DNA of 64,000 nt, from assembly GCA_001000675.1 (NCBI GenBank), contig LCHW01000001.1:463-64462 (forward strand). Direction: 5' to 3'. This document shows, in pieces, positions 1 through 55,017 of the stretch (position 1 is the first letter of the stretch; each line of letters starts with the position of its first letter). The stretch is from Candidatus Wolfebacteria bacterium GW2011_GWE2_44_13. GTDB lineage: Bacteria > Patescibacteriota > Minisyncoccia > UBA6257 > UBA9933. Position numbers and translations under genes: made by a program. Under the pieces are notes generated by a model, which worked only from the letters and a program-made list of their open reading frames with translations, ran no database searches and was not told where the DNA came from.

Positions 1-3000
1 AGCGCCACCTCCTCCAGTAATATTAGCGCCTCCTATTGTATTGGAAGCAGTTGCAGCTACTATTGGTTCACAAGAACCATTCCCTCCGTCGCCTCCCTGT
101 GCCGTTGCTTTTACTTGTCCATCATAAGTGACGCTACTAGAAAAGCCCGAATCCCCATAATAACTCATCTCTGCCTCTCCTCCTTCACCTCCCCCTCCAG
201 CAACCGATATTGTTACTGAGGTTACGCCAGCGGGCACGGTCCATGCTGTTGAAATTGGAGTAAGGAAAGAAATGGTTGTAGCAGCTGTTCCCGCATCAGT
301 TGCCGCCAATGTTAACGTTGCACTTGTCGAAGATGCGTTGGCCGCTCCTGCATTTATTACAATAGAACCCGTCGGCGCGGTTGTATCGAGTGCAATCGTA
401 TCCGTAACGTCAGTGGTTGTATTTCCTACTGCATCCTTGAATCGCATGTAGACGGTTTTTGTGCCATCCCCCGTAGTAAGTGTGTGAGCCTTAGTAGTCG
501 CCGTAGTTGTCCAGTTGGTTGGACTTGCGGTGTTGCCATATGCCATTTGCACCGGACCGTTTGCGTCAGTCGGCACAGTCACGTTCAACGTGACTGACGT
601 AGAAGAAGCAGTAGTTGCATCTGCGTTGACCTTGAACGATCCACCAGTTGGGGCAGTGGTGTCGAGGGTGATACTGTCCGTTGAGTAATTTGCTGTGTTC
701 CCTCCTGCGTCACGGAACTTTATGTAAACGGTCTTCGTGCCATCCCCTGTGTCGAGGGTATGGGCTTTGCTTGTTGTTACGGCTGTCCAGTTGGTTGGAG
801 AAAAAGTATTGCCATATGCCATCTGCAATGGAGTCCACGCATCAGTTGGTGCTGTGATGTTTAGCGTGACGGTCGTTGAAGATGCATTAGCCGCTCCTGC
901 GTTAATCGAAACCCCTCCGCCAGTTGGGGCAGTGGTGTCGAGGGTGATGGTATCCGTCGTGTCAGTGGTTGCGTTCCCTGCCGCATCCATAAATCGCATG
1001 TACACGGTTTTTGTTCCGTCGCCCGTCGTGAGGGTATGCGCAATTGATGTGCTCGTAGCAGTCCAGTTGGTTGGGCTTGCGGTGTTGCCGTATGCTATCT
1101 GGCTGGCATCGGTTGGCACGGTCACATTCAAGGTAACTGCCGTAGTCGATGCGTTTGCTGCATCTGCGTTCACTTTGAACGACCCACCGATTGGGGCTGT
1201 GGTGTCGAGGACAATCGTATCAGTATATTGGCTCGTTATATTTCCCGCTGCATCTCTAAATCGCACGCGAATTGTTTTCGTACCGTCACCCGCGGTCATT
1301 GTATGCGACACGCTCGTTGTTGCAGCGGTCCAGTTGGTAGGAAAATCGGCATTGCCATACGCAACTTCAACAGGGCCGTTTACATCCGTTGCCATTGTTA
1401 TATTGAGCGTAACTATAGTCGAAGATGCGAGAGGCGCACCCGCATTAATTAAGACACCTCCTGAAGCTGGGTCAGTAGTATCGAGGATAATAGTATCTGT
1501 AGTATCTGTAGTTGTGTTACCTACCGCATCCTTGAATCGTATGTAGACGGTCTTTGTTCCGTCACCTGTTGCGAGTGTATGTGTAATTGATGTAGCCGCA
1601 GTTGTCCAATTGGTTGGACTTGCGGTGTTACCATATGCCATTTGTATCGGACCATTTGTATCGGTTGGTACGGTTACATTCAAGGTGACCGATGTTGAAG
1701 ATGCATATGTTGTTCCTGCGTTAATCGCTACTATACCGCCCGTTGGGGCAACAGTATCAACTGTTGCGTTTACTGAAGTTGAACTTGCCGTGCCATTAAG
1801 CACATCGCCATCTACGGCGGTTATACGCACCTTGAATGTCGCCGAATCTGCATTGGTTAAATATTGCTGCACGTTCCAATAAGCCGAATACGCAGTGTCG
1901 CTTCCCGTTGCAACAGTGCCCACGTTATTAAACGCGGCTCCTGCTACGGTTGTTAGTTGCGCTGTTGGTATCGTTGTCCACGTACTGCTCGTGCTGTATT
2001 CAAATGTTGTTGTCGCCGTTAGCGTTGTTGAATCAGCGTCTCGTAATGAGAAGTCTATTTTCATCTTGCCGTAATTTGCATCGGCACTTGAGGTAATTTG
2101 AGATGCAGTTATTGATGCAATTGCGGGCGGAACGTTGTATATATAGGAAGGCTTTACTTCAGAAACAGTTGGAGTATTTTGTCCGGTAGAAGTTAAGTCG
2201 ACTTTATATTGAAAATATTGATCGCCTGAGCCATCTTTCATTGCAGCGGGAATCGCTGAAGAAGCACAGGTAACTGTGTCTGTTGCCTTAGTGCATCCTG
2301 CAGTTGCATTCGTAAACGCAGTCCATGACCCTAGTGTTGATGTTGCGGTGCCTGTGCGAAGAGAAACAGTGACCGTTGTCCCTGACGGAAGACTTGCTGT
2401 TTCTTTCCATACCAACCCCGTCATGACGTTATATGCGCTAGTGGAGTTATATGCAGAAGATGTTACCGAACCCGTAGTAGCATACAGGCCGTAGGTTATT
2501 GTCACATCATCAAGCGATGGACTTTGTGCTGTGTTCGCAGTAGAAAGCGTTGCTTGATATTGAATATACTGATGTCCTGCGGTTGCGCCGAGAGCTACAA
2601 AAGAAGTACCGCTTACTGTGGTCGGAGCCCCCCATGCACCACTCGTGGCTGCGGCAGATGAAGCGCCAGTACGTACCTTCATGGAAACAGTTTGTCCACC
2701 CGAGTTTGTCCACGATATATTGCCCCAGTTCGCAACTGGTACTCCTGTATCAATAACACCGGAAGTAAACGTACCGGAAGTATAGTAAGCGGCAGAGGGT
2801 GTAACCGAACCCGTCACGCTATCAAGTGAGGGGGTAATTGCCGTATTGCCACCGTTTGCCAACGTAACCTGATACCAAAGATATCGGCTATTGGTCGGAG
2901 CGCATGTCGTGTTGAGTGTTATAGATCCATTGGTTGCAACGGCTCCCGAGTCACATGTCCCAGATGCAAAGCTTGGAGCACTTGCAGTCGTGCTGCCCTT

Positions 3001-4794
3001 TACCTTAATAGAGAGGGTTGAGCCGGATGGATATTGTCCTGTATATGTAAGTGAGTTCCAGGTATAGGATGCTGCTCCACCTGCATCGAGGTAGGAAGTG
3101 TATACACCAGCCCCTAAATTAATCGCGCTTTGTACTGGAGCGGTGCGGTCCGTTTGTGTTCCATCTCCTAATTGCCCATTCCAATTCACCCCCCACGCCC
3201 ATACTGTTCCGTCGCTCTTGAGAGCGAGGGAGTGCTGCTCTCCTGCGCCAATTGTAGCTACCCCGACTAAACCAGGAGTTTGTATTGGGGTGCCTTGATC
3301 TCCAGCTGTAATACTCCCAAGTCGCCCATCAGAAAAATATTGAAGGTACGTAGGACTTTTGTCGTCAGTATCGAGGCTTCCGTTAGCCCCCCACGCCCAT
3401 ACTGTTTCGTCGCTTTTGAGAGCGAGTGCGTGATATTGTCCCGCGAAGATTGCAGTTACTCCAGTTATACTTACCACTTGCACCGGAGTGCTGCGACTTA
3501 CCTGCGTTCCATCTCCTAATTGCTTATATTGATTCCACCCCCACGCCCATACTGTGCCGTCGCTTTTGAGAGCGAGGGAGTGGTGGTATCCTGCGGCAAT
3601 CGCAGTGACTCCGGTTAAAAATCCAGTACCTCCTACTCCCTTTACTTGTACCGGAGTAGTTCTCCACCCGCTTGGCACTCCATCCCCTGTTTGCCCATAC
3701 GTCGCATATCCCCATGCCCATACTGTTCCGTCGTCTCTAAGAGCGAGAGAGTGAATACCTCCCCCGGCAATGGCAGTAATGTCAGTTAAATACCCAGTAC
3801 CTCCTACTCCCTTTACTTGTACCGGAGTAGTGCGTTGAATTAGTGATCCGTCGCCTAGCTGCCCGTTTGTATTGCTTCCCCACGCCCATACTGTTCCGTC
3901 GCTCTTGAGAGCGAGGGAGCTACTTTGTCCTGCAGCAATCGCAATGACTCCAGTTAAGAATCCAGTACCTCCTACTCCCTTTACTTGTACCGGAGTAGTG
4001 CGTTGCGTTGTTGATCCGTCGCCTAGCTGGCCACTTGTATTAACCCCCCACGCCCATACTGTTCCGTCGCTCTTGAGAGCGAGGGAGTGGGCAGCTCCCG
4101 CAGCAATTGAGGTTACTCCAGTTAGGGTTGAAACTTGCACCGGAGTAGTGCGTTGCGTTGTTGATCCGTCGCCTAGCTGCCCGGTTGTATTATGCCCCCA
4201 TGCCCACACCGTTCCGTCGCTTTTAAGAGCGAGGGAATGGTTGTATTTTGCGGAGAGTGCTGGCGTAGCAATTGCGCTTCCGAGCACTACGCTTGCACTA
4301 TCGCCCGTTAAGCCGTTTTGCACAGTAGAGGCATTCGTTCCATATGCCCATCCTCCTTGTTGCGCTGGTGTGGCAACAGTGGCCGTATTGTTGGTTGTGG
4401 TGATGCTTTGTGTTGCAGACTGCGAGCCAAGCAATACAGAAGCGCTCGCCCCTGTTCCGGTAACTGTTGTAGATGCAGTTGTGTACGTGCCGTATTTAAA
4501 ACCAGTTACAACTGCAGTGGCGTCACTCGTTTGCGTTACTGCCGTCGTCGCAATAGGCAACGTTATTGTCGTTGCTGTTTGCGCTGTCGACACCGAGTAC
4601 TGTATCCATGCAGTACGGTTCGTTGGCTCAACAGGTACAGCGGTTGTTGCGCCGCCGACCCATGACGTTTGATCGAACGATGCGGTTGTTGCTGCTTGTG
4701 CTTGTCCGATAACCATCGTCGCAAGCGTAATAAACGCAAGAGCGGTTCCGAAGGCTTTTTTAAAAATATGTTTGTAGTTTGTGAGGAGTTGCAT
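1..4794 (-). CDS. Giant secreted/surface protein with RCC1 (alpha-tubulin suppressor-like) beta-propeller repeats and tandem ~93-aa Ig-like modules. C-terminus lies beyond the window start, so the CDS is partial.
   Basis: Reverse-complement translation from ATG at 4794..4792 gives MQLLTNYKHIFKKAFGTALAFITLATMVIGQAQAA, a signal-peptide-like N-terminus. Repeated motif VWAWGxNxxGQLGDGSTTQRTTPVQV (about 7 copies, RCC1-type) spans roughly 3100-4300. About 5 tandem ~280-bp modules (TLDTTAPTGGxxxINAGAxxASSTSVTLNVTVPTD...GDGTKTVYxRFKDAxGN) span roughly 300-1800. The window edge carries a glycine-rich GGGG tail. The plus-strand ORFs in the track over this span (737..1546, 3872..4672, etc.) are antisense artefacts. 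Confidence 0.8.
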   Translation of the reverse strand, partial: MQLLTNYKHIFKKAFGTALAFITLATMVIGQAQAATTASFDQTSWVGGATTAVPVEPTNRTAWIQYSVSTAQTATTITLPIATTAVTQTSDATAVVTGFKYGTYTTASTTVTGTGASASVLLGSQSATQSITTTNNTATVATPAQQGGWAYGTNASTVQNGLTGDSASVVLGSAIATPALSAKYNHSLALKSDGTVWAWGHNTTGQLGDGSTTQRTTPVQVSTLTGVTSIAAGAAHSLALKSDGTVWAWGVNTSGQLGDGSTTQRTTPVQVKGVGGTGFLTGVIAIAAGQSSSLALKSDGTVWAWGSNTNGQLGDGSLIQRTTPVQVKGVGGTGYLTDITAIAGGGIHSLALRDDGTVWAWGYATYGQTGDGVPSGWRTTPVQVKGVGGTGFLTGVTAIAAGYHHSLALKSDGTVWAWGWNQYKQLGDGTQVSRSTPVQVVSITGVTAIFAGQYHALALKSDETVWAWGANGSLDTDDKSPTYLQYFSDGRLGSITAGDQGTPIQTPGLVGVATIGAGEQHSLALKSDGTVWAWGVNWNGQLGDGTQTDRTAPVQSAINLGAGVYTSYLDAGGAASYTWNSLTYTGQYPSGSTLSIKVKGSTTASAPSFASGTCDSGAVATNGSITLNTTCAPTNSRYLWYQVTLANGGNTAITPSLDSVTGSVTPSAAYYTSGTFTSGVIDTGVPVANWGNISWTNSGGQTVSMKVRTGASSAAATSGAWGAPTTVSGTSFVALGATAGHQYIQYQATLSTANTAQSPSLDDVTITYGLYATTGSVTSSAYNSTSAYNVMTGLVWKETASLPSGTTVTVSLRTGTATSTLGSWTAFTNATAGCTKATDTVTCASSAIPAAMKDGSGDQYFQYKVDLTSTGQNTPTVSEVKPSYIYNVPPAIASITASQITSSADANYGKMKIDFSLRDADSTTLTATTTFEYSTSSTWTTIPTAQLTTVAGAAFNNVGTVATGSDTAYSAYWNVQQYLTNADSATFKVRITAVDGDVLNGTASSTSVNATVDTVAPTGGIVAINAGTTYASSTSVTLNVTVPTDTNGPIQMAYGNTASPTNWTTAATSITHTLATGDGTKTVYIRFKDAVGNTTTDTTDTIILDTTDPASGGVLINAGAPLASSTIVTLNITMATDVNGPVEVAYGNADFPTNWTAATTSVSHTMTAGDGTKTIRVRFRDAAGNITSQYTDTIVLDTTAPIGGSFKVNADAANASTTAVTLNVTVPTDASQIAYGNTASPTNWTATSTSIAHTLTTGDGTKTVYMRFMDAAGNATTDTTDTITLDTTAPTGGGVSINAGAANASSTTVTLNITAPTDAWTPLQMAYGNTFSPTNWTAVTTSKAHTLDTGDGTKTVYIKFRDAGGNTANYSTDSITLDTTAPTGGSFKVNADATTASSTSVTLNVTVPTDANGPVQMAYGNTASPTNWTTTATTKAHTLTTGDGTKTVYMRFKDAVGNTTTDVTDTIALDTTAPTGSIVINAGAANASSTSATLTLAATDAGTAATTISFLTPISTAWTVPAGVTSVTISVAGGGGEGGEAEMSYYGDSGFSSSVTYDGQVKATAQGGDGGNGSCEPIVAATASNTIGGANITGGGGA

Positions 4795-5361
4795 GTTTAG
4801 TTGAGTTGTTTGGAAAATATATTTTACTGCTTTTTTTAAATCAAATTCTTTTTTATGTCTTGTCTTCTGTTTTCTTTGTTCGTATCGATGCAACTTGCTA
4901 TCGAGCGTTGCATCGTTTTGATGATAATATATTTCTTCACCAACTCGTTCTTTCTGTTTATACCAAGTGCTTTCGAATAAACTTCTTTCCACTCGCTGAA
5001 GCACATTCTGCTTCCAACCTTTTTTACTCAACTTGTTTTTATTACTATGCTGTTTGTCATTTCTGCGAAGACTGATACTTGGCGTAATCGAGGAATCTGT
5101 TTTTACATACTGCAGATCCTTCGACAAGCTCAGGATGACACGTGCAGCGGAATAATTTTTGAAACACAAAATTTCCTTTTTGCTAAAGGATTTCATTTCT
5201 TTATATATGCTTAATGACGCACGCAAGAGTGTCATTTATTTCGTAGTGATGTATCGATTATTCAACGCAAGAAGAATGTTCGACAACTTATTTTTTGTTA
5301 CCCATGTAACATGCTTTTATTATATGCTTCTTGTTATTACAACGCAAGCATATTTTAAAAA

Positions 5362-5392
5362 AATAAACACCGATGTCGGTGTTTATTTTTTT
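5362..5392. terminator. Bidirectional intrinsic terminator hairpin (AAACACCGATGTCGGTGTTT) flanked by A/T runs.
   Basis: Perfect inverted repeat with a T-run, immediately 3' of the recombinase gene on the minus strand. Confidence 0.5.
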
Positions 5393-6291
5393 CTTCTGCG
5401 CCCGTGAAATGTTTGGTGTATTTCTTTTAGCTCCTTGTTTGTGATGTGTGTATAAATTTGCGTCGTCGCTATGTTTGCATGCCCCAGCATTTCTTGTACC
5501 GACCGAATATCTGCACCGTTGATTAATAAGTCAGTGGCGAACCCGTGACGTAACATATGCGGATGCACATGCTTTGCGATGCCCGCCTTACGTGAATAAA
5601 AATCTACGAGGCGTTGCACTGTCCGAGGGATAATCCGCCCAATCACTTTCGGGCTCGTTGCTTTTGTATAACTCACGAACATTGCCTCCTCTGCGTCACC
5701 TCGACGGTCTAGATATTCTTTTATTCTCCTTACAGACCGTTCATCAAGAAACACCACCCGCAACTTATTACCCTTACCCCGAACCGTCACCTCTCCACGA
5801 TTAAAATCGATATACCTGTTTAAGCTACATAGCTCAGAAATACGCAGCCCTGTTGAAAATAATACTTCGAGAATTGCACGATCTCGTAACCCTTTTACAC
5901 TCCCTCCGTCCACTGTGTTCAATAAGCGTTCTAGTTCATCATACTCAATAACTTCTATTTGCCTTGTTGGCACTTTAGGAAGTTCAATTTTATCGGGTGA
6001 CAATACCTTGTAATCATTCTTAATCAAGTACTTCAGGAAGTTCCTCAACGCTATTATATAGTAGCTCTGTGTCGACTTGTTATATTGCTCCCCTCGCCCA
6101 TTCGAAGAACGTGCTAAGTGTAGGCGAAAATCTCGCACGCGCTCCACGGTTATATCGGTCTCATTTTTGATATTCTCCACTTCGAAGAACTTTTTTAAAT
6201 ATCGTTGATAATTCTCCCCCGTCTTTTGCGCACGGTTCTTTTCGATCTCGAGATAGTCGATATATTCTTTTAGGAGAATGTTTACGTCCAT
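5383..6291 (-). CDS. Tyrosine site-specific recombinase, XerC/XerD (phage integrase) family.
   Basis: 302 aa. The C-terminal catalytic region HPHMLRHGFATDLLINGADIRSVQEMLGHANIATTQIYTH carries the R..HxxR..Y signature. The N-terminal SAM-like domain is present. Confidence 0.85.
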   Translation of the reverse strand: MDVNILLKEYIDYLEIEKNRAQKTGENYQRYLKKFFEVENIKNETDITVERVRDFRLHLARSSNGRGEQYNKSTQSYYIIALRNFLKYLIKNDYKVLSPDKIELPKVPTRQIEVIEYDELERLLNTVDGGSVKGLRDRAILEVLFSTGLRISELCSLNRYIDFNRGEVTVRGKGNKLRVVFLDERSVRRIKEYLDRRGDAEEAMFVSYTKATSPKVIGRIIPRTVQRLVDFYSRKAGIAKHVHPHMLRHGFATDLLINGADIRSVQEMLGHANIATTQIYTHITNKELKEIHQTFHGRRRKK

Positions 6292-6393
6292 TGCTCTTAG
6301 TATACCAAAATGTTTTACGACAGACTAATTGACATGGGGCTCAGCAACGCTTTATCTAATTGATTTATCTCGGTCGTCTGTCACCCCCCGCAC

Positions 6394-6700
6394 TCAGGTC
6401 CCCGTATACGCGAGGATAAACTCCGGCGGGGATTCATAAAAATACTGGATTCCCGCCTGCGCGGGAATGACAATGCGAAAGAGGCTCTGGCATTCCGAGC
6501 CCTTCAGCACGCTCAGGATAAACTCTGTCGAGGAATCTGCTCTCACTATATTCTTACTGCAGATTCCTCCACTTCGTTTCACTGCGGTCGGAATGACAAT
6601 ACAAAATACTGGATTCCCGCCTGCGCGGGAATGACAATGCGAAAGAGGCTCTGGCATTCCGAGCCCTTCAGCACGCTCAGGATGACCCCGTAAAATTCGC
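6394..6700. repeat. Tandem pair of REP/MITE-like elements, each ending in the GATTCCCGCCTGCGCGGGAATGACA hairpin motif.
   Basis: An ~80-bp direct repeat (AATACTGGATTCCCGCCTGCGCGGGAATGACAATGCGAAAGAGGCTCTGGCATTCCGAGCCCTTCAGCACGCTCAGGAT) occurs at about 6437-6520 and 6602-6685. Track ORFs 6394..6705 and 6579..6842 (peptides VIPAQAGIQ...) are translations of this repeat. Confidence 0.6.
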
Positions 6701-6811
6701 TCCACTCATCACGGGGCGAGCAATGCAAAAGCAAAGGCCACCCCGCCTCCAACAGGAGGCGGGGTGGCGGGCTTCCCAGAAAGCTTTTTTGCCTAACTTC
6801 CTGTTTTCCTA

Positions 6812-7087
6812 GTGTGAAACAAAAATGTTTCACACGGCCCAAACTGCCGATATTTGTTTCACGTGAAACAATTTGTCACGTTTTACGCCCCCATTTCGAA
6901 ACTTTTGTTTCACGTGAAACATTTTGTCACGCTTTTGCTTCCCAGGTGTGAAACATTTTTGTTTCACACCGATTATTTTGTTTCACGTGAAACATTTTTA
7001 AATTCACCTTTGGAAGATTTGTTTCACGTGAAACATTTTGTTTCGTTTCACACCATGTTTTTCGCAATATTTGTTTCACGTGAAACA
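6812..7087. promoter_or_regulatory. parS: Array of parS (ParB-binding centromere-like) sites: five perfect 16-bp palindromes TGTTTCACGTGAAACA plus two degenerate inverted-repeat variants.
   Basis: Perfect TGTTTCACGTGAAACA at 6855-6870, 6906-6921, 6979-6994, 7020-7035 and 7072-7087. Variants GTGTGAAACA-N4/5-TGTTTCACAC at 6812-6835 and 6946-6969. The sequence matches the conserved chromosomal parS consensus tGTTtCACGTGAAACa. Confidence 0.75.
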
Positions 7088-7142
7088 AAAGTGCTCATTT
7101 TAACCCTAAGCCCTGCCTATCTATTTGGCATTACCCCCAAGG

Positions 7143-7166
7143 TTATCCACAATTCTTTGTGGATAA
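7143..7166. promoter_or_regulatory. Inverted pair of perfect DnaA boxes (TTATCCACA-N6-TGTGGATAA).
   Basis: TTATCCACA at 7143-7151 and its reverse complement at 7158-7166, about 55 bp downstream of the last parS site. Confidence 0.5.
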
Positions 7167-7254
7167 CTCGGCAAAACTATTGCCAAGCCTTTTTGTTCTC
7201 TTTTCTTGGCTGTCATTCCGATGCTGACCACGGGGCAAGTAATACTGGGGATTC

Positions 7255-7330
7255 GATTAATCAAGTGCCTTGTCATTCCCGCGGAGGCGGGAATCTATTA
7301 GGTGCTGGATTCCCTCCTCCGCGGGAATGA
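7255..7330. repeat. REP-like compound palindrome (TGTCATTCCCGCGGAGGCGGGAATC, 12-nt spacer, GATTCCCTCCTCCGCGGGAATGACA).
   Basis: Member of a dispersed palindromic family also seen at 59706-59765, 61885-61945, 48598-48640 and 6394-6700. Confidence 0.6.
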
Positions 7331-7379
7331 CACACCTTCGCTTTTACATACTCAGTCTTCCGCCGTATACTTTCTCTAT

Positions 7380-7796
7380 ATGACCGACCATCTTCAAACA
7401 GGTTCACTCGGTGAAGACGCTGCGTGCGCATATCTTGTGTCTCAAAAATTTTCCATTCTTGAAAGAAACGCTCGAGAGAAATTTGGGGAAATCGATATCA
7501 TCGCAAAAGATCCCGATGGTATTCTTGTCTTCGTCGAAGTGAAGACACTTAGCTCTCCCGAATTCTTGTTCCCCGAGGACAACTTGACCCGAGCTAAGTT
7601 TAAGAAACTTTCCCGCACTTGTCTGGCTTATGCGAATGCTCATCCCGAGCTTGTTGATTCCCAACTCGGATGGCGTATCGACCTTGTCGCCATAGTCGTA
7701 AACCCTCCTTACTCAACCACCCCAGACGCTCACCTATTTCAATACGGCAAAAATAATTTTGCCATATCGCATTACAAAAATATCTCGCTCGCATAG
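7380..7796 (+). CDS. yraN: YraN/UPF0102-family predicted endonuclease.
   Basis: MTDHLQTGSLGEDAACAYLVSQKFSILERNAREKFGEIDIIAKDPDGILVFVEVKT matches the UPF0102 pattern (GE..A..YL...G..IL.RN.R...GEIDII..D....VFVEVK). The ATG at 7380 is in frame with track ORF 7302..7796; the upstream portion of that ORF overlaps the REP element. Confidence 0.7.
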   Translation: MTDHLQTGSLGEDAACAYLVSQKFSILERNAREKFGEIDIIAKDPDGILVFVEVKTLSSPEFLFPEDNLTRAKFKKLSRTCLAYANAHPELVDSQLGWRIDLVAIVVNPPYSTTPDAHLFQYGKNNFAISHYKNISLA

Positions 7797-7850: not shown

Positions 7851-8236
7851 GTACTCAGATATACATCGGAAACACAACCTCAGTCTTGATCCTTCTTGCG
7901 TTGGAAATATAGGCTACACATTTTACATATCACATGACACTCTTGCGTTTGTCATTCACTCTTTATCGTTTTATTTTGTCTTTTTTGAAAAAGACTTTTT
8001 TGCGTTTTACTCGCCTTACTATCCTTGCGCAACGGCTCGTTAGAAGTAGGGAAATGAGTGTACATATTTTTACAAAATCATTTCGAAATCAGTCCTTCTC
8101 TATTTTAAAATATCTACGGCGCTCGCTCCTGAGACGCAGGAGAGTTGGGGAGCAAGTCTTACAACTCACCCCTCGATACAACTACCGCCGACTCAACACA
8201 CTCACTATCCAAAACTCAACTCTTCCTACTATAACA

Positions 8237-11200
8237 ATGCAACGACTTACCAGAACAATCGCATCACTTATCCAATCACAACGACGTACGCTAACACGTG
8301 GGCTTGTAATTGTACTGGCAATCATGACTGTCGTTGCACCACTCGCACCAGCGTTCGCCGCGACGTATACGGTGACACAATCGAGTTGGACTGGGGGAGC
8401 TTCATCAGCCAACGCAAGTCACCCAACCAACGCAACTGGATGGACAAACTTTTCAACTACCTCTCAAGCCGTTGCGGGAAGTGCCGTCACCTCCGCAGTA
8501 GTCGCAAGCTCAACAACACAAACAACGTTTGCGGATTTTACTGGTGGCGCTACGAGCTCAGTGGATATTAACGGAACTCCCGATGCTTCACTTGCATTGC
8601 AACGTCTTACAACCCCAACGACGTTTGGAGGGGATGCACAAAAAACCATTTCTCTTAACACACCGAATGCTTCTGCACTTGATACTGTAAACAACAAAAT
8701 TTATATCGCGGATACTAATAATCACCGAATTGTTAAAATGGATTCGGGGACTGGCGGCACTACATTTGGCAATAATGCTCAGACCCTCGGAGGTCCTACG
8801 GCTGGAACTGGCGTTGGACAGTTTTCTTCACCTACTGGTATTACCGTAGACCCGATTAATAATCTCGTATATGTCACAAGCGCTACCACGGATAACGTTA
8901 TTAAATTTTCCTCCGGTGGTGCTGGACTTATGGCAACGAGCACCTGGACTTCTATTGCAGTTACTAATCCTAACGCAGTTGCTCTTGATGTCTCTGAAAA
9001 TTTGGGGTATGTAGTCACCGCCAGTAACGAAGTCGTTCTATTTAATACCGCAACCATGGTGCGTATGGATGCTATGGGAAGTACTGGTACCGGAGCACAC
9101 CAATTTTACGCCCCAGTGGGTGCTGTTATTGATTCTGTTTACAACAAAATTTACGTTGCTGACACAAACAATAACCGAATTGTCAAAATGGATTCGGGAA
9201 CAGGAGGAACAGAATTTGGAGCGAACCGTCAAACATTAGGTGGCCCTGCATCTGGAAGCGGTACTGGACAATTCAATGCCCCAAAAAGTTTGGCACTTGA
9301 TTCTGTGAACAATATGCTTTATGTCTCTGATACCGGCAATCATCGTATTACTAAACTTGCTTCCGGTGGAGCGGGCGCAATGTCTACAAGCACATGGTAT
9401 ACACTAGGAGGAACCGCTTCTGGATCAACGGCGGGTAAGTTCGCCTCTCCACGAGGAATTTTTGTCGACACCGTAAATAGCTTCGTCTATGTTGCCGACG
9501 TAGCAAATGATCGCATTGTTAAGTTTTCCTCCAATGGAACGGGTGCTATAACTACGACTGGATGGAATACCCTTGGTGCAAATGGAACGGGTATTGGCCA
9601 ATTTGGAAATCCTTTTGGAATTACTGTCGATGTTACAAATGCAATGGTGTATGTCGCAGACTTAACAGGCCCACGCATTGCGAAATTTTCTTCCGGTGGA
9701 GCGGGAACGATGTCGACAAGCACATGGTTTACACTCGGTACTTTTGGTTCTGGCGCTGGTCAATTTACTGGGCTGGAGGATATTGCGCTAGATAGCGTAA
9801 ATAATTTTCTATATGCCGCAGATGCTAGCCGTGTAGTAAAATTACCCACTAATGGAGCTGGTGCGCTTACGACTACAGGCTGGACAACACTTGGAACAAG
9901 TGGGAGTATAAGCGTTGGACAATTTGATGACTTAACCGGCATTACTGTCGACGCCACTAATAATGTTGTGTATGTTATCGACAATGGACGTAGCGGTGTC
10001 GTACAATTTTCTTCCGGTGGAGCGGGAGCGATGTCTACGACTGGGTGGGATTCAATTGCTTCCCTAGGAGCAGGGACCCACGAGCTACGTAGTCCTTCTA
10101 GTGTTGCAGTTGATGCGTCAGCTAATAAGGTATATGTAACCGAATCTTCTAATAATCGCGTATCTAAATTTAACTCTGGTGGCGGAGGAACCGAGTTTGG
10201 AACCGCCCGACAAAATCTTGGAGGGCCTACCGGTGGCTCGGGTGTTGGGCAATTTTATGTGCCTCAGGGTATCGATATCGATACAACTAATAATTTTGTG
10301 TATGTTGCGAACATGCAAACAGACACTATTATTAAGTTTGCTTCGGGTGGAGCGGGAGCGATGTCTACGACTGGGTGGTCTACCTTGGGCGCGAGTGGGA
10401 CGGGCATTGGGCAGTTTGGACAGGCATACGATGTTGATGTTAATACACTTAACGGACGTTTATTTGTCACTGATTATGAACATGATCGCGTAGTTACCTT
10501 TGCTTCGGGTGGAGCGGGAGCGATGTCTACGACTGGGTGGGATGCCTTAGGCAGCTCAGGATCTGGATTAATGCAACTAAGTCAACCTTATAAAATATCC
10601 ATCGATCGCGTTAATAATAAGGTGTATGTGGCTGACAGAATCAACAACCGTATCGTAAAGATGGATTCCGGTACTGGCGGCACTACGCTAGGGAATAACC
10701 GACAGACTCTTGGAGGGCCTACAGCTGGCTCAGGTACTGGGCAATTCAATAGCCCTATTGGCCTATTTGTCGACACAGTTAATAACTTCGTGTACGTTGG
10801 CGATGATGGTAATAATCGTATTGTAAAGTTTTCTTCCGGTGGAGCAGGTGCAATGTCTACGACTGGATGGAATACGTTAGGATCCTCTGGCTCGGGTGTT
10901 GGCCAATTCCAGACTCCTACCGACGTTTTTGTCGACACCGTTAATAACTTCGTGTACGTTTCTGATAGTCTCAACCACAAAGTTGCAAAGTTTTCTTCCG
11001 GTGGAGCAGGTGCAATGTCTACGACTGGATGGAATACGTTAGGATCAACCGGCACGGGTGTTGGTAAATTTACAACCCCTGAAAGTCTCTCCATTGATAC
11101 GACAAACGACTACGTCTATGTAATTGCGTCTAATTTTGTTGTTAAATTTCCTTCCGGTGGAGCGGGTGTCATGACTACGGACACTTGGCAAACGATTGGT

Positions 11201-14200
11201 GGAACAGGGGTCGGAGTCGGCCAATTTACAAGTGCGAAAGGAATATTTATTGACCCCGTTAACAATTACGTGTACGTTGCCGACACAGGAAACGACCGCA
11301 TTGCGAAGTTCGCCTCGGGCGGAGCTGATAGTATGTCGACGAGCACATCGTGGCAAACTGCGCCTGTATCAACAGACCCGTACGGCGTCTTTGTTGATAC
11401 CGTTAACGCGCGCGTATACGCAGTTTCAAGCCCCACTAACGCAGTCTATTCTTTCACCTCTGGCGACCCAATGATTGCCTATGTTTCAGCTGGGGCATAC
11501 ACATCTTCTGTTATCGATGCAGGAGTAAACACCCGAGCGGGTTCTGTTTCTTTGAGCTGGACTGATTCCATCTCCGCATCTATCAACACTGCAACGCCAG
11601 TCGGACTGCAAGTTGCGAGCAGTAACAGCGCAAGCGGTCCATGGACATTTTACGGGCCGGCGGGAACAACGGCTGCAAGCGATGTCTATACCACAAAGAC
11701 AGGGACGATTCTTAACGCAATCCATAACGGAGCGCGCTACTTTAAGTATACAGTTACGTTACAAACGGGAGACGTTACACTAACCCCCGAAGTTCTTTCG
11801 GTAACATTTAATTACGATAGCTATGCGTCTGCTTCCTATATAATCTCTTCTCCATATAACACAGGGGACATCAGTAACATTATTGGGAAACTCCAATGGG
11901 TTGCGAACAGCACACCTTCGGGCACGTCTATTAAGTTTCAACTCCGCAGTGCTCCGGATGTAGCAGGAGCTCCAGGAGTGTGGAGTAACTGGGTTGGTCC
12001 GGACGGACAAACGAGCTCGTACTTTACCACTGCCGCTGGAACCGACTCTATCCCGAGTATGTTTACCACTAACTCGCAGTGGTTCCAATATAAAGCGTAC
12101 TTTGATTCTACTGGTATCAACACGGCCTCTCTTGGTAGCGTCACCACTACGTATTTAGTAAACAGTCCTCCGCAGGTTGGAGCTACTGGCGTTACTGCAT
12201 ACCAAATTCCCACCTCGACCGACGCAAACTACGGTAACGTTGCTATTGCCTTTTCAGTAAAGGACACTGACTCTGAAACAGGCCTTGCCACCACGACGCT
12301 TGAATATAAAAATGGCGCAAGTTGGGTTCCTTTGACGAACGCTACAATTTATAACGCATCGAGTAATCCAGTAACAAGCCCGCTCGTTGCGCCAACTTCA
12401 ACATTTGCTTCATATTCCGTTATATGGAATGCAGCTGCACAGCTCGGCTCTGTGGCCACCTCTACACAAATCCGCGTTACGCTTAACGACGGAGCACTTG
12501 GCAACGCAACTGCATCGTCATCAAGCACTGCATTTTCAATCGACACTGTTGCCCCTACCGGAGGCTCGCTTACCTTTGACGCAGGTATCGCTGGGCAAAC
12601 AAACAGTGGTTCAATTGTCATTGTTCCGGCAACCGATACGAATACCCGCCAGTATACAATTTCTGACGGCACAACCACAAACGACTGGGCTTCAATTTCT
12701 ACTACAGTCACTATTCCGTGGACATTTAGCTCCACCATTAATGCAAAGACACTATCCCTTCAATTTAGGGATGCTTTTGGCAATACTGCGGCAACTTCAA
12801 CCTATACTACTCCAATACCTTCTGACCCAAGCGGATTTCTTATTCAAGACGTTTCAAAAGTTGGCACCGCAGATTATCGCCTTTATATAGGATGGGCTAC
12901 ATCGTCGGCCGTCAACTTCGGTTCGTATAAACTCGAGTACGCAACGTCAACAGACAACACAACGTTCGGGACATATTCCGATGCCGCTCTTATCACTGAT
13001 GTTGCGACAAACTACTTAGTTCACGTCAATCTTAACAACGCATTGTATTATCGATATCGTCTTGCCGTTAAAAACACTCAAGGTAATACGTCTGTTCGAT
13101 CGAATGCGTATATTAACGCACGCCCTGATGGTATACAGAACCTCGGCGAAGGAGGGGGAGGGACTACTGCATCTGCAGCATCAATCACAACCGTTTCTCC
13201 TGTGCAAACTACTTCCGCAGGTACGGTTACCGTTGCATATACCCTCGTCGATACATCTATCACGAGCAAAACAAATCCGTTGTACGAAGGATATGTCTTC
13301 TATAATATAGGAACAACTGTTTCAACATCGGACGCAACGACAATTACCCTATCCGATGCTTCACATCTTCCAGCTAGTGGATTTATTCAGGTTAACAATG
13401 AAATCATCGGATATACATCCAAGACCGGAAATGTTTTGAATGGCATCACGCGCGCAACATGGCCGACTCCCGCAACTACACGAGCAACCCGACAAAATGC
13501 GTTGATTTTGAGCAACACGCCAGTGTGGGTGCAGGCAAGTTCGACAAAAACAACGATTACCAATAGCACTATTGCGACCGGCCAAGCGGGGACTATTATA
13601 TGGAACACACAGAATGAGCCGGCACTTACGGGAGCAACGTATGCCAACACAGGCGTGCGCGTATTGGTGCATGATAATCAAGCCGCAGAGTCAGGTCCTA
13701 TTACTACGCAGAGCGACCAGTCAAACGATGGAACATTGGCAACACTTGATATGAGCGCGCCGACGATTCAATTCACAACCGCAAATGCTAGCGGACTCGA
13801 AACAACTGGATTTGCAACTTCAACAATCATCCTATCAAAGCCATATCCGTTGAGTGTTTCTACAAATTATGCCGTGACCGGAACAGCGACAGCGACACAT
13901 GGGCTTTTGGGTTATTGGCCATTTGAAGGAAATGCGAATGATACGAGTGGGAACGGGAATAATGGAACATGGTACGGAACTTCTACGAGCCGATATGGAA
14001 CAGGAGTGCACGGTACGAGCGGAGCATTAAATGGAAGTAGCGATTATTTAGATTTTGGTAATAGCACCACATTTAACGGAATGAGTGCTCTTTCAGTTGA
14101 AACGTGGGTAAAATTAGACGCTTATCCTTCTACGGGCTTAAATTATTCTCCTGCAGGTAAGGATGCTGCATATCGATTTACAATAGGGCCATCAGGATCT

Positions 14201-17200
14201 GTTTCATTTACCATTGCAACGGTAAATAATGGCTGGTACACTCCTGGAACTAGTGTGTCCGCCAGTGGAGCTCTTCAATTGGGGGCTTGGTATCATTTAG
14301 TGGGAACCTATGACGGCGCACGCACAAAGATTTATGTAAATAGCGGTACACCCGTACAAGGAGCACAGGCTATTTCAGGGAACACTGTCACTAACGTAAC
14401 TTCTTTTAAATCGAGCTATAACACTGGGAATATTACTTATTTAAAGGGCGCTATTGATAGTACTGCTCTTTATAACCGCGCACTCACTCCTTCAGAAATT
14501 GCAGATCTTTACGCTTTTGGCGTGCAAGATTATGGCCTTTCAACTAACGCGACCACAGGTACGGTAACAATTGCAACAGGAGCAACATCAACTGCAATTA
14601 CGGCGAATATCATAAACGATCAACTCCCTGGCATCGACAAGAATTTCACCATAACCTTGTCGAGCCCAACCAATGCAACTCTTGGGGCGAACACGGCACA
14701 CACCTATACGATCACCGAAGTAACTCCAAATCCGACTATCGGGTTCTTGAGCGCAACTGCATCAACGACCGAAGCGGAAACTATCGTTACTGTGCCCGTT
14801 GTTCTTTCAACTGCATCTGCCGTTGATACATCGGTAAGCTATTCAATTGCTGGAGGTACGGCCATTATCGGAACAAACTATTCTGCAACCACGACAAGTG
14901 GAACAGTAACTATCCCTGCAGGTGCAACATCTACAAGCATTACCTTTGCCATCAAACAAAGCGCACAGAAGGACTCTGACCTTACGGTCTTGGTCACTTT
15001 GTCGAGCCCAACGAATGTAACGCTTGCAACATCAACACACACGCACACCATCAAAGACAGCAGCGTTACGCCGACGGTGTACTTTACTACGGCAAGCGGA
15101 TCAGGGTCTGAAGCAACGGCAAATCCAACGATTGGCATTTCACTTTCAAACCCTTCTGCATCTGCAGTAACTGTTACCTATACGGCAACTACTTCGAGCG
15201 ACAACTCAGCCAATGGTTTGGTTGGCTTATGGCAGTTTGAAGGGAATGCAAATGATACGAGTGGAAATGGGAATAATGGAACACCTCAACTAGGTGCAAC
15301 ATTTTCTTCTCTAGGGGGCGGCAAATTTGGAACACAAGCGGGGGTTTTCGATGGAGGTGCAAGTGCCTATGCAACATTGAATAGCGAAATTCGATTCTCT
15401 GATTCTCAACCATGGACTCTTTCTTCGTGGATTTATCAAACCGGAACAAAATCCTTTGAATTTTGGATAGGGGATAAGGATACAGTAGGGATGGCTATAA
15501 ACTTGGGTAGCGCCACTGGCCTTGTACAGTTTAGAGACCGCGCACTTGCCTATCATGATTGGAATGTTGGATTTAATTATAAAAATGCGTGGCATTACTT
15601 TACTTGGATCGCGCGCGGAGACAACACTATTGAGATGCTCGTTGATGGAATCTCTTATGGACTCGTCACAACTCCAAGTCAGTTTTATATAGACGCCATC
15701 GGACGAGGATATGGAACGGGCACTCAGTGGAACTATACAGGGCGTTTAGACAACACCGCCATCTACAACCGTGCCCTTTCGGCAGCGGAGGTTAAGGCCC
15801 ACTATGCAGCGGGTATCGACACACTTCCTGCAATCGGAACAGTAACTATTCCAGCAGGACAGACATCTGCAATCATAACGCCAACTATCATCAACTATGG
15901 ATCGTACGAAGGGGATCGTGAATACAAACTGGTTCTCTCCACTTCAACCAATGCAACCATTGGAGCAACAAGTACATACACATACTCGATTACTGAATCA
16001 AGCGCACTTCCTGCGATTGGATTTACCGTAGCAACTGGCACAGGACTTGAAGCTGCTACAACAACGGTTACTGCCTCAATCGCATATCCGTCTGTCTTTG
16101 ACATAACGGCAACGATTGCACAGTCGGGAACTGCGGTCAGTGGGGTCAACTATACAATCCCTGCAACCACAATCACGATTCCTGCCGGCGCTACATCGAC
16201 ATCGTTTGTTTTGACAACGCTCAATAACGGTGTGCGTGATCCATTGCTTTCCGCTGTTCTTACCTTGACGAGCCCAACAAACGCAACCGTCAATGCAGGT
16301 GCATCGACATATACGTACAGTATCCAAGACAACAATGTCATTCCAACGATTGGCTTTGCTTCTACTGGTTCAACCGTTGATGGAGTTGTATCAACAATCA
16401 CTATTCCTGTGAGCTTGTCTTCTGCAATGAACCAAGATGCGTCTGTGGGATATACGGTGACAGGAACTGCTGTCTCGGGCCTCCACTACAACGCAAGCTT
16501 CGCTTCAAGTGGTACAGTATCTATTGCAAGCGGCGCAACAACAACCAATCTAACAATCCCATTGCTCGATGATGCCATCAGTGGCCCTGTTACAACGACT
16601 GTTATTATTTCTCTCGCAGATCCAGTCAATGCGACGACGACAAATGCAACCACGACGTATACATTGACCATCAATGAAGTAACGGCAGATCCAGCAATTG
16701 GATTTACCAGCACTTCTGCTTCAGGACTTGAGAATATTGCTTCCATAGCCATCCCGGTGTCTATTGATGCAACGTCAACACAGGCAATCACTGTCACCTA
16801 TACCGTATCTGCATCATCAACTGCAGTCAGTGATACAAACTATGTTCTTGCAAATGGAACGGCTACTATCGCAGCAGGTGAAACAGCAACAACGATCAGT
16901 GCATCCATTCTCAACAATCCTGTGCGTGAATTGGACAAGACCCTCATCGTTACCTTGGGCACTCCAGTAGGAGCAACGCTCGGAGCAGCAACTACATACA
17001 CGTACACAATTCAGGACATCATTACCACAACTGCTCCGGTGATGAGCAATATCATCCCGACGCAGAGTACTACGAACGGAACAGTATCAGTTGCATACAC
17101 CATTACCGACGAAGCATCCACCAACAAGGTATTGCCATCATATGAAGGCTATGTCTTCTACAATATTGGTACGACTGTATCTTCTGCAGATGCAACAACC

Positions 17201-20200
17201 ATCACTGTTTCTGATGCAACGCACTTGCCAACCGCAGGCTCTATCCAAATTGGCAATGAAGTTATTACCTATACCACAAAGACAGGCAATGTTCTTTCTG
17301 GGTTGACCCGTGGTACATGGCCAACAACGGGAGCTCGCACAACACGACAGAACACAACTATTGTTGCTGGTACTCCGGTTTGGATTCAAGCAGCTTCGAC
17401 AAACACAACCATCGTCAATTCGACGATTGCAACAGGACAATCGGGAACCATCGTATGGAACACACAAAATGAACCTGCACTTGCAGGAGCAACATACAGC
17501 AATGTAGCTGTCCGAGTTCTTGTACATGACAATCAATCTGCAACAACCGGTCCGCTTTCTTCACAGAGCGATCAATCCAATGATGGAACATTGTCGTTGC
17601 TTGATATGAGCGCGCCGACGGTGAGCTTTGCTACTACTGCTTCCAGCGCCTTCGAGAATGCAACAACATCAACCACACTAACTGTTGTTCTTTCGAAGAT
17701 TGCACCTGTTGATGCTTCTGTCGGCTATACCATTACGGGAACTGCCGTAAGTACGGTTGACTATATAGCGGAAACCGAAGGAACGCTTACCATTCCTGCA
17801 GGAGCAACATCAACCACACTCTCGATTCAGCCAATTGCTGACCATGTGTTTGGAGTAGACAAGACCGCAATTGTAACGCTTTCTTCTCCAACCAATGCAA
17901 CAGTGGGTGCACCAAATGCATATACACTTACGATTGTTGAAGCAGATGTTCTTCCTACAATTCAGTTTGATGTCGCATCGGCATCTGGACCGGAAACCAC
18001 ACCGTCTTACGATATCGTTGTGCGTCTTTCTACGACAACAGCTGCAACAACTACTGTTGCCTATGCTGTGTCGACCTCGACTGCACTTGATGGAATAAAC
18101 TTCTCCCTTACTGCAGGAACACTTACCATCCCAGCAGGAGAACTTACCGCATCCATTCCACTCACAGTCATTCATGACAACTTGTTTGGTGCGGACACTT
18201 CGGTGACGGTAGCGCTTACTAACCCAACCAATGCAACGCTTGGAGAAACAACATCCTTTGTGTATACGATTACTGAAACGGATCTTACTCCAGAAGCAAA
18301 CTTCTCTGTAGATTCTTTGAACGTAGATGAACTTACCGGCACAACCACGGCAACGGTAACGCTTTCCTATCCATCCAACCAGGACATTACTATCCCTGTT
18401 GTGGCAGATCCCGCATCAACTGCCGTAGCGGAAACCAACTATACCCTTCCGGTATCTTCAGTTACCGTTCCTGCGGGAGATACGACTGCATCGTTTACGA
18501 TCATAGCGCTCCATGATACAACCTACGGCCCAGACAAGACGCTTACCCTTTCCTTGGGCAGTGTTGATGGGATGACCTTGGGATCATCTACTACCTACAC
18601 GCTTCTTATCACCGAAGTAGATAACACCGCTCCGGAAGTCGCATCAGTTTCTGCGGCACAGGTTGCATCTTCAACTGAAGCAAACTTTGGAAAGGTGGAA
18701 ATTGTCTACACCGTTCGGGATACCAATACGAATAGCGGAACAGTAAACCCAACATTCATCACCCCTTCGTTCGAATACAACACAGGGCTTGGATGGAATG
18801 TAATTACCACACTCCAAGCAGAAGACATCGCAAACAAATCTGTAGCAGAAGACGTCTTTGCGCCATACACTGCACTATGGGATGCGCAAGCACAGCTCGG
18901 GTCTGTTTCATTGCCTGCCGTAGAAATTCGCGTCAGCGCAAATGACAATGAACCGCTCAATGGCATCGGACAAGGCACAAGCACTTCGTTTGCCTTTGAT
19001 CGCCAAGCACCACAAATCGGACAGTTCAAGTTTGATGCACGTACCGGTGTGCTGACCATCGCAATTACCGACGCAGCTTCATTCACGTATGCTGTTTCCA
19101 ACAACGCAGACCTTTCTGCCGATGGCGTCAACGCAACAAGCGGTATCAGTACGGCAGCTCCAGCAGGCACGCTTGCATCAACAGAACTATGGACTGTTGC
19201 ATCGGGTGATTACCCAAGCATTTACTTGCAGGTACAGGATGCCCTTGGCAACGCAGCAACCCGTCAGATTACTATCCCAACAAAGCCACAAAACTTTGCC
19301 TTTACCGATATCTCCGACGTAAAGAGTTCACTCTTCAAGGAGCTTGTCAGCTGGTTGCCGTATGTTTCCACATCGAGTGCACCATTTGCTTCCTACGATA
19401 TCTATCGCTCTATCGATGGCGCTGAATTTGCGCTCCTTACCACGAAGAGCGAAATTGCCAACAATTTCATTGTTGATGAAGGACTTGCATCATCCAGCGT
19501 CTATACGTACAAGATGACCATCACCGATACCGCGGGAAATGTTTCTGAGTATTCGGAGACTGTAACCGATACTCCTGATGGACAGGGTCAAACAGACCTT
19601 GTTCCTCCAATCATCTCCGTCGTTACCGCAGCAACGGTCCGCAATACTTCTGCAATCGTCACATGGACTACGGATGAAATTGCAGATTCCATCGTTCGTT
19701 ATTCCCTTGCATCAGATGCAGGATCATATCGCACCGCCTCATCAACCGGACTTGTTACTGACCATTCCGTTACATTGACTGACCTTATCCCGAACACGGA
19801 TTATACGTTTATCGTACAGTCAACCGACCCAACAGGAAATGCTTCTGCATTCTCTGATTCAATTGCCTTCACTACAACAGGAGGTCCGATTATTACCGAC
19901 ATCGTTGCAACTCCCGCCGACAAGGCTGCGACAATCACATGGAATACCAACAAAGATTCTGATTCAATTGTTACCTATTCAAAGAGCTCAAACTTCAATG
20001 GCTTCAATGCAATCGTGGGCACAGTCACCCCTGTGGGAGATGCTTCAACCACGGATGTATTCACGCATGAAGTTTCGATTACCGGACTTGATTCCGGATC
20101 AACCTTCTACTACAAGGTGAGCTCGACTGACAGCAGCGGAAACGAATCAGTTGATGACAACAATGGAGTGTACTACACATTCCGAACACTGAGTGATACC

Positions 20201-48989: not shown

Positions 48990-49136
48990 ATGTCAGTCAC
49001 ATACCAACCAAACAAGCGAAAACGAGCTCGAACACACGGGTTTTTGGAGCGAACTTCGACTCCAGGTGGACGACGGGTTCTTATTGCACGACGCCGGAAG
49101 GGACGGAAGCAGTTGACCGTTAAAAAGGCCTGTTAA
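48990..49136 (+). CDS. rpmH: 50S ribosomal protein L34.
   Basis: Not in the ORF track (48 aa). The sequence [48 protein letters not shown] matches the L34 consensus (TYQPxxRKRxRxHGFRxRMxTxxGRxVLxxRRxKGRKxL). Confidence 0.85.
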
Positions 49137-54015: not shown

Positions 54016-54136
54016 CCTGTTTGCAGTGGCCCGTCTTTCGAGACGGGCCTTTTGTATTAGTTGACAGCTTTTGTGCGAATTGGTTTACTAGGGGCAGAAT
54101 CATATTCTTAATAATTTAATAGAGAGGAGTTGGACT

Positions 54137-54862: not shown

Positions 54863-54977
54863 TAAGGGGCCCGCTTAAAAAGCGGGCCATTTTTTATGTA
54901 TGTAAAAAGTAAATACGAGATCCCTCGTACGTCTAATGATATATACAACGTGCATTTTTCCTTCTCACCTTCTTTTT

Positions 54978-55017
54978 AAAAGTGTCTATAACTCTTGCTA
55001 TAGCAAGAGTTATAGAC
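54978..55017. repeat. 38-bp perfect palindrome GTGTCTATAACTCTTGCTATAGCAAGAGTTATAGACAC. Twin of 50897-50935.
   Basis: Seen in the sequence. Confidence 0.6.

Follow-up and report, generated by a model that had tools for sequence, protein, structure and literature searches.

A compact, helically phased parS array upstream of yraN as a probable chromosomal centromere of Candidatus Wolfebacteria

The parS array and its accessory sites

The window analysed here is a stretch of 64,000 nucleotides from Candidatus Wolfebacteria bacterium GW2011_GWE2_44_13 (contig LCHW01000001.1, positions 463 to 64,462 of the forward strand), a member of the Patescibacteria or Candidate Phyla Radiation (CPR). It is chromosomal and ori-proximal; its proteins have exact matches in Rifle groundwater assemblies, on contigs of 541-608 kb. 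Within one intergenic spacer of this window, between the divergent genes xer and yraN, lies a dense array of parS, the sequence recognised by the partition protein ParB. A first-pass annotation made from the sequence alone had placed five perfect parS 16-mers TGTTTCACGTGAAACA at 6855, 6906, 6979, 7020 and 7072, and every one of these coordinates was confirmed; all five sites are perfect matches to the 16-bp palindromic consensus TGTTNCACGTGAAACA. The universal ParB parS consensus is reportedly to be found in work by Livny from 2007. The elements of the array and its immediate surroundings are as follows (window coordinates).

6812..6835, no strand: everted half-site pair GTGTGAAACA-AAAA-TGTTTCACAC (two copies of the accessory 10-mer TGTTTCACAC), left of the array
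6855..6870, no strand: parS site 1, perfect TGTTTCACGTGAAACA, invariant in the alignment with L126 and L128, two related species
6906..6921, no strand: parS site 2, perfect, 51 bp from site 1
6946..6969, no strand: everted half-site pair GTGTGAAACA-TTTT-TGTTTCACAC, within the array, between sites 2 and 3
6979..6994, no strand: parS site 3, perfect, 73 bp from site 2
7020..7035, no strand: parS site 4, perfect, 41 bp from site 3
7044..7053, + strand: degenerate half-site CGTTTCACAC, just past parS site 4
7072..7087, no strand: parS site 5, perfect, 52 bp from site 4
7143..7166, no strand: inverted pair of perfect DnaA boxes, TTATCCACA-N6-TGTGGATAA, 55 bp beyond the array

The five sites occupy 233 bp (6855-7087), and the rest of the 64-kb window, together with a further 15 kb fetched on its right-hand side, held no other match to the 16-mer with two or fewer mismatches. 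In 100 dinucleotide shuffles the observed count of 16-mers was never reached, and 14 of the 15 exact 8-mer half-sites of the window fall in 6814-7087. The spacers between the parS sites (25-57 bp) are mutually unrelated in sequence. An origin of the array by tandem duplication was rejected, given these unrelated spacers and a Tandem Repeats Finder result limited to a weak 19-bp signal from half-sites. An open reading frame (ORF) that runs over the array (6854-7330; a 155-aa gene at 6863-7330 on the + strand in ENA assemblies) was considered spurious, as no such gene is called in related species.

The accessory 10-mer TGTTTCACAC consists of a parS half-site followed by AC and often occurs as everted pairs. 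Two degenerate inverted variants had been described as flanking the array; two extra elements do exist, but both are everted half-site pairs of the form GTGTGAAACA-N4-TGTTTCACAC, and one of them lies inside the array. Homologous copies of this inner pair (6946-6969) are present in L126 (two) and L128 (one). Besides the window, TGTTTCACAC is carried by the array loci L126, L128, L232, L250 and L256; its density is 2.14/kb at CPR arrays versus 0.01/kb elsewhere, and it was seen at 0 of 233 non-CPR array loci among the matches listed. A lone parS in L250 (11534) is also accompanied by a TGTTTCACAC copy, at 11553.

Conservation and selection in Wolfebacteria

The array recurs in the divergent yraN-xer spacer of three relatives (L126, L128 and L130), whose Xer proteins are 91%, 86% and 74% identical to that of the window and whose spacers hold 5, 6 and 4 perfect parS sites, respectively, the last with one more at a single mismatch. 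When the spacers of the window, L126 and L128 were aligned, 80 of 80 parS columns were identical, versus 52 of 153 spacer columns; invariant 16-mers amid diverging spacers are direct evidence that the parS sites themselves are under purifying selection. The synteny comparison proposed in the first-pass annotation as a way to detect an integrated element gave no break: the yraN-array-xer block is kept in all three related species, with the core genes tsaE, rpsI, fusA and gyrA around it, and the genes downstream of yraN and of xer differ between species. More distant Wolfebacteria (Xer at most 72% identical) have other synteny, and no parS was found within 10 kb of xer in them.

The DnaA-box palindrome TTATCCACA-N6-TGTGGATAA at 7143-7166 was likewise confirmed. 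It is kept in L128 (perfect) and in L126 (one mismatch), and the 6-nt spacer between the boxes has a different sequence in each.

Helical phasing of the sites

The spacings between the parS sites of the window (51, 73, 41 and 52 bp) are whole helical turns, the same-face spacing known from iterated plasmid-type centromeres. Across CPR arrays the spacings cluster at 41-44, 50-55, 60-65, 72-75, 83-86, 93-94, 103, 115-116 and 126 bp. For arrays selected within this analysis, the mean resultant length (R) of the 16 spacings from four Wolfebacteria species was 0.94 at 10.6 bp, a value that 0 of 20000 null resamples reached. With one array per yraN-linked lineage (n = 26), R was 0.73 at 10.4 bp (reached by 1 of 20000 nulls), and a Moranbacteria array (L139) taken alone gave R = 0.78 (n = 14; 13 of 20000 nulls). 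Among the matches listed, 265 spacings of non-CPR arrays gave a maximum R of 0.14. Moreover, spacer lengths differ between Wolfebacteria species by about 10, 21 or 31 bp, and therefore insertions and deletions appear to be restricted to whole turns.

Two further ideas on the phasing were rejected. Intrinsic curvature was dismissed as its cause, since the array's AA/TT power at periods of 10-11 bp is unremarkable, falling between the 40th and 70th percentiles of window segments; once the parS sites are masked, it ranks in the top 6.5% of those segments. Nor do the everted half-sites and the DnaA palindrome share the parS lattice, as their distances, calculated by hand, are not consistent multiples of 10.5 bp.

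Tight parS arrays in other bacteria and a separate CPR class

Chromosomal parS clusters and tight arrays are already known and widespread, and genomes often have one or a few closely positioned parS sites (PMC8357415). The premise of the first-pass annotation that chromosomal parS sites are normally scattered singly was thus too strong, tight pairs and triplets being common in many phyla. A scan of one genome per species for two perfect parS sites 20-50 bp apart returned at least 120 loci (L006-L125) from many phyla; among the matches listed, 91 loci had 2 sites per 300 bp, 24 had 3 and five had 4-6. A metagenome scan for three such closely spaced perfect sites also returned at least 120 loci (L136-L255), and those listed comprise 92 loci with 3 sites, 13 with 4, 14 with 5 and one with 6. 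The array lay within 500 bp of a parA start in 54/120 genome loci and 72/120 metagenome loci, again among the matches listed. Runs of 2-7 perfect parS sites directly upstream of parA occur widely in Firmicutes, Actinobacteria, Proteobacteria, Bacteroidota and others, and Collinsella species have in common three sites spaced exactly 39 bp apart. One locus binned as the archaeon Nitrosopumilus (L064, CAXQPB010000082.1) has four parS sites together with bacterial-type parA and parB, and is probably a mis-binned bacterial contig.

Among the metagenome matches there is a group of CPR loci, low in GC, in which 4-7 perfect sites lie directly upstream of a yraN homologue (L158, L189, L216/L256, L232, L241 and L250); no parAB was found near them. 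Including the three Wolfebacteria relatives, yraN adjoins the arrays of L126, L128, L130, L158, L189, L256, L232, L241 and L250. L158, L189 and L241 are placed in the CPR by Xer or YraN similarity and shared synteny only, the Xer of L158 being 51% identical to that of the window. The YraN of L250 is annotated as Candidatus Paceibacterota, and the DnaA of L256 groups with Paceibacterota/Minisyncoccia. The gene order in L256, tsaD / array / yraN-yebC-ruvC-dnaA-dnaN, leaves 2.5 kb between the array and dnaA. The densest array seen is that of a Moranbacteria locus (L139 and L258 are the same locus; JGI Ga0180436_10000184), where 15 perfect parS sites in 985 bp (L258 7941-8924) lie between cca and dnaA, about 1 kb from dnaA.

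Perfect DnaA boxes also stand beside the arrays of L158, L232 and L250. The density of DnaA boxes near arrays is 0.144/kb versus 0.033/kb overall, nearly all cases being CPR loci, and a perfect box within 300 bp of an array was found almost solely at CPR loci among the matches listed. Three properties (phasing, DnaA boxes and TGTTTCACAC) set the CPR arrays apart as a class from the parA-linked arrays. A search of the open full-text literature on parS and ParB in CPR returned no relevant paper on CPR chromosome segregation, and the CPR combination of a phased array with DnaA boxes, linked to yraN or dnaA and unlinked to parAB, was not found in the searchable literature.

The replication origin lies elsewhere

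The first-pass annotation had put the array about 40 kb from dnaA, which was confirmed, and had recommended comparing the GC skew of the two regions. Features of the dnaA region are given below, dnaN and dnaA as in the gene calls.

45648-46766, - strand: dnaN
46934-48301, - strand: dnaA
48302..48989, no strand: oriC candidate, the intergenic region between dnaA (-) and rpmH (+), with perfect DnaA boxes at 48410 and 48520
48990-49136, + strand: rpmH, divergent from dnaA/dnaN
49270-49593: rnpA, divergent from dnaA/dnaN

Six perfect DnaA boxes are present in the window, and the four outside the palindrome flank dnaA (46856, 46910, 48410 and 48520). The cumulative GC-skew minimum falls at 49-52 kb, in the dnaA region and not at the array; the skew stays negative through 5-9 kb with no inflection at the array. 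GC content is lowest at dnaA (0.36), compared with 0.43-0.44 at the array. Several DnaA boxes, an AT-rich element, a skew switch and dnaA itself thus come together at 46.8-49 kb and not at the array, and oriC is the rpmH-rnpA / dnaA-dnaN junction, about 41 kb from the array. Since the skew minimum and the four DnaA boxes sit at that junction, the array is ori-proximal but distinct from the origin. The name "origin-like module" was therefore not borne out for a locus with two boxes, no skew inflection and GC of 0.43-0.44.

Neighbouring genes and repeats

The genes and repeats on both sides of the array are listed here.

1-5235, - strand: giant RCC1-repeat gene, behind xer on the same strand
5383..6291, - strand: tyrosine recombinase of the Xer family, 302 aa, housekeeping; adjoins the array on the left in the Wolfebacteria subclade
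6439..6683, no strand: REP/MITE-like insertions (repetitive extragenic palindromic / miniature inverted-repeat transposable element), an 81-nt perfect direct repeat at 6439-6519 and 6603-6683 with ATTCCC-N8-GGGAAT hairpins, outside the conserved module
6737..6768, no strand: perfect hairpin, GC-rich, with arms of 14 nt and a loop of 4 nt; located after the REP elements and before the array
7271..7332, no strand: REP-like inverted hairpin pair, between the DnaA palindrome and yraN, outside the conserved module
7380..7796, + strand: yraN (UPF0102, PD-(D/E)XK nuclease-like, 138 aa; UW32_C0001G0005), conserved right neighbour of the array
7934-21892, + strand: giant NHL/FN3-repeat gene, 4652 aa, behind yraN on the same strand

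The tyrosine recombinase at 5383-6291 (-) had been predicted and was confirmed. It has the catalytic domain PF00589 and the SAM-like N-domain PF02899, and scores 232 bits with the hidden Markov model (HMM) XerA_Arch (cutoff 220) and about 240 bits each with XerC and XerD, below their equivalog cutoffs. Its best 120 homologues are 64-92% identical, single-copy-like and all from Wolfebacteria or Patescibacteria, and it is therefore regarded as a vertically inherited housekeeping recombinase; the two domains, the family-level score and this inheritance are those of a Xer resolvase.

The module had also been placed in the divergent promoter region of two giant genes. Giant genes do lie on both sides, but xer and yraN intervene. 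They vary in length, position or presence among strains and species (L002, L003, L126, L128 and L130): in the relative with 91% Xer identity the RCC1 gene follows yraN and not xer, and in the relative with 74% they are absent, with ribosomal-protein, tsaE and gyrA regions flanking the module instead. Regulation of the giant genes by the array, one of the readings offered earlier, was accordingly abandoned, given that relatives have the same module with these genes missing or placed differently around it. Assembly breaks tend to fall within the giant repeat genes.

Stacked REP/MITE elements are indeed present by the array, as had been noted, but they are dispersed through the window and absent from the corresponding region in relatives. 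Their ATTCCC-N8-GGGAAT hairpins occur at 6449, 6613, 7275, 7309, 48606, 59707, 59741, 61886 and 61920, in intergenic positions and often as inverted pairs. The module has the giant genes, the Xer recombinase and the REP hairpins as neighbours, and not as components.

Several other observations were made in the window and at its edge. All four Wolfebacteria (window 7360-7382; L126, L128 and L130) have a conserved TATACT-like hexamer 7-9 bp before the ATG of yraN, which suggests that the yraN transcript may be leaderless or have a very short leader. Just beyond the right end of the window, dprA and topA are adjacent (L260/L261 4803-7698); together with xer and yraN, they presumably resemble the actinobacterial yraN-comM-dprA-xerC neighbourhood. 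At 53608-57533 (+) there are five consecutive same-strand ORFs of 135-248 aa with no Pfam match, called as genes in several assemblies. A search of the window with Rfam at gathering thresholds found tRNAs and no other structured RNA; one Rfam tRNA match, at 59958-60089 (+), is 132 nt long and was not called by ARAGORN; its length points to a tRNA that carries an intron or other long insertion, and the anticodon of the next tRNA (60327-60415, +) could not be assigned by ARAGORN.

Relation to known centromeres

The array shares its 16-bp consensus and its ori-proximal grouping with the parS clusters of known ParABS/SMC systems, namely those of Pseudomonas aeruginosa (parS1-4), Caulobacter crescentus, Myxococcus xanthus (22 sites) and Corynebacterium glutamicum, whose presumed role is ParB nucleation, segregation of the ori region and SMC loading (PMC7022226, PMC3899335, PMC7083940, PMC8357415). 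However, those clusters are spread over kilobases, their sites being "separated by a few kb" (PMC8357415), and usually include or adjoin parAB, whereas the array described here is confined to 233 bp, has whole-turn spacing, DnaA boxes and half-sites, and no parAB was found within tens of kilobases of it. The tight arrays upstream of parA, such as the three sites at 39-bp intervals in Collinsella or the seven sites of a Lachnospiraceae metagenome-assembled genome (L088), likewise consist of 2-7 or more perfect sites in a few hundred bp, but differ from CPR arrays in phasing and in TGTTTCACAC (maximum R and half-site counts as given above for the matches listed).

The closest plasmid counterpart is sopC of the F plasmid, with 12 direct repeats of 43 bp, each containing a SopB site (PMC3177203). 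Both have many identical 16-bp inverted-repeat sites at short spacings of approximately whole helical turns. sopC, however, is a true tandem repeat of a fixed unit, is plasmid-borne and lies beside sopAB, whereas the CPR array is not built of tandem direct repeats of one unit; its spacers are unrelated, its spacing varies (41-83 bp), its sites follow the chromosomal consensus, and its locus is vertically inherited.

The accessory elements also have precedents. In C. crescentus, DnaA is bound to boxes that lie in the parS region and not at the origin proper (PMC6399470, citing Mera 2014). DnaA boxes lie near parS in both cases, but those of the window form a perfect inverted pair at which DnaA binding is predicted, in an unrelated lineage. 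ParB of P. aeruginosa binds half-parS sites (PMC5961200, PMC10419367); these half-sites are scattered genome-wide there, whereas the extended half-site TGTTTCACAC of the window is concentrated at the array, often in everted pairs.

Interpretation and alternatives

We consider it likely that the array is a compact chromosomal centromere of Candidatus Wolfebacteria, located in the divergent yraN-xer region about 41 kb from oriC. A main chromosomal centromere was one of the readings offered in the first-pass annotation, and it agrees with the results: the sites are consensus parS, ori-proximal, the sole parS found in about 83 kb around oriC, and conserved under selection. Canonical ParB dimers would nucleate on each 16-mer and, with cytidine triphosphate (CTP), close into clamps that slide onto the flanking DNA. 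Five adjacent loading sites would provide a high loading rate at a single point, by which the ori region would be marked both for segregation and for the loading of SMC; with loading confined to one zone, collisions of SMC may be avoided. It has been reported that more parS sites lead to faster ParB clamp loading and more stable condensation (PMC8299390), and that clustered parS sites avoid SMC collisions (PMC8357415). Whole-turn spacing would place the bound dimers on the same DNA face, where they may form a structured nucleation complex with side-by-side contacts. By analogy with C. crescentus, the DnaA-box palindrome may allow DnaA to bind at the centromere, and by analogy with P. aeruginosa, the extra TGTTTCACAC half-sites may offer auxiliary, low-affinity ParB binding.

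Several points weigh against this interpretation. ParB and ParA were not found from about -4 kb to +79 kb in window coordinates, nor about 20 kb beyond xer in a relative, nor at any fetched CPR locus (about 200 kb), in a search that covered about 10% of the genome. It consisted of Pfam scans of sizeable window ORFs and gene lists, tblastn with Bacillus subtilis Spo0J and Soj, and our own HMMs (E ≤ 10), which were built from about 150 ParB and ParA sequences of fetched loci that include no CPR ParB seed; candidate ParA seeds from low-GC loci, taken as possible CPR sequences, were rejected when they proved to be from Alphaproteobacteria or Clostridia, and L160 resembles a Firmicute. parAB is accordingly not linked to ori or parS here, from which absence from the genome does not follow, and a cognate ParB is assumed. 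Arrays of such density in the other sampled phyla have parA directly downstream, unlike the array of the window. Helical phasing is not accounted for by the sliding-clamp model, which makes that part of the mechanism speculative, and AA/TT periodicity shows no sign of unusual intrinsic curvature. The DnaA palindrome is not conserved at that position in L130, and a REP insertion separates it from the yraN promoter in the window. Finally, a regulatory role would be compatible as well with the array's fixed place immediately before yraN.

An alternative is that the array is mainly a transcriptional operator. ParB or another reader of the 16-mer would then, with DnaA, repress or time the divergently transcribed yraN and xer, along with the genes that follow each, and segregation would be secondary or absent. 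In at least seven independent CPR loci yraN lies immediately downstream of the array, often with a DnaA box between the two; the tight arrays of other phyla in the parA promoter region suggest autoregulation, and ParB at intergenic parS represses adjacent promoters in P. aeruginosa (PMC7022226). However, the 15-site array of Moranbacteria (L258) has no recognisable yraN beside it, a 130-bp REP insertion parts array and palindrome from the yraN promoter in the window with no sites lost, 4-15 perfect consensus sites far exceed what an operator needs, and the genes downstream of yraN and xer vary between species. We therefore judge this view unlikely.

Considerably less probable is that the 16-mers are read by a non-canonical protein, such as a paralogue of ParB/Noc, or YraN itself with the CACGTG core as its target, in CPR that lack ParABS. 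Such a reader would accord with the failure to find parAB within about 80 kb of oriC or near any CPR array, with the strict link to yraN and with the CPR-specific TGTTTCACAC accessory sites. On the other hand, YraN is widespread in bacteria that have no parS nearby, and the parAB search, as mentioned above, extended over only about a tenth of the genome. The 16-mer is identical to the consensus that ParB recognises universally, and three CPR orders (Wolfebacteria, Paceibacterota and Moranbacteria) retain it without a mismatch, which argues strongly for canonical ParB, as the simplest cause would be a conserved helix-turn-helix of ParB.

We give hardly any credence to a remnant or functional origin-plus-partition cassette of an integrated plasmid, integrative and conjugative element or phage, although dense identical centromere repeats next to a tyrosine recombinase, which would be its integrase, do resemble mobile-element architecture such as that of F sopC (PMC3177203). 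The recombinase scores equally as XerC, XerD and XerA and has its best 120 homologues in Wolfebacteria/Patescibacteria; the yraN-array-xer synteny is kept among core genes in three further species; rep, parA, parB and conjugation genes were not found nearby and there is no composition break; and no match was obtained in 72,556 plasmids, phages giving only short parS-like partial matches (8-22% of the query). This reading, also put forward in the first-pass annotation, was therefore set aside. Just as improbable is a second or relic replication origin, for which the two perfect DnaA boxes 55 bp from the array could be cited, possibly as leftovers of an ancestral oriC-adjacent position given that other CPR arrays lie just 1-2.5 kb from dnaA, but which is at odds with the paucity of boxes, the lack of a skew inflection and the GC content described above, and with an intact canonical rpmH-rnpA / dnaA-dnaN origin, bearing the skew minimum, 41 kb away.

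Significance for CPR chromosome biology

The chromosomal centromere interpretation would supply a conserved, concrete centromere for uncultivated, ultra-small bacteria. In fragmented CPR assemblies, arrays of this kind serve well to mark the ori region. Through the recurrent DnaA boxes, the Caulobacter idea of DnaA at the centromere is extended to a distant lineage. More tentatively, and with rather less confidence than doubt, Parcubacteria-type CPR (Wolfebacteria, Paceibacterota/Minisyncoccia and Moranbacteria) might share a plasmid-like phased centromere, made of 4-15 perfect parS sites with DnaA boxes and TGTTTCACAC, located at the yraN promoter or at dnaA and unlinked to parAB; a structured same-face complex of ParB, possibly with DnaA, might then link the initiation of replication with segregation in ultra-small cells that contain very few ParB molecules. 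In its extreme version, such a centromere would work without canonical ParA or ParB.

Whole-turn spacing is a design rule that the ParB sliding-clamp model does not predict and that is absent from 265 spacings in other phyla. Should this phasing prove functional, a defined geometry would be possible for the complexes in which ParB nucleates.

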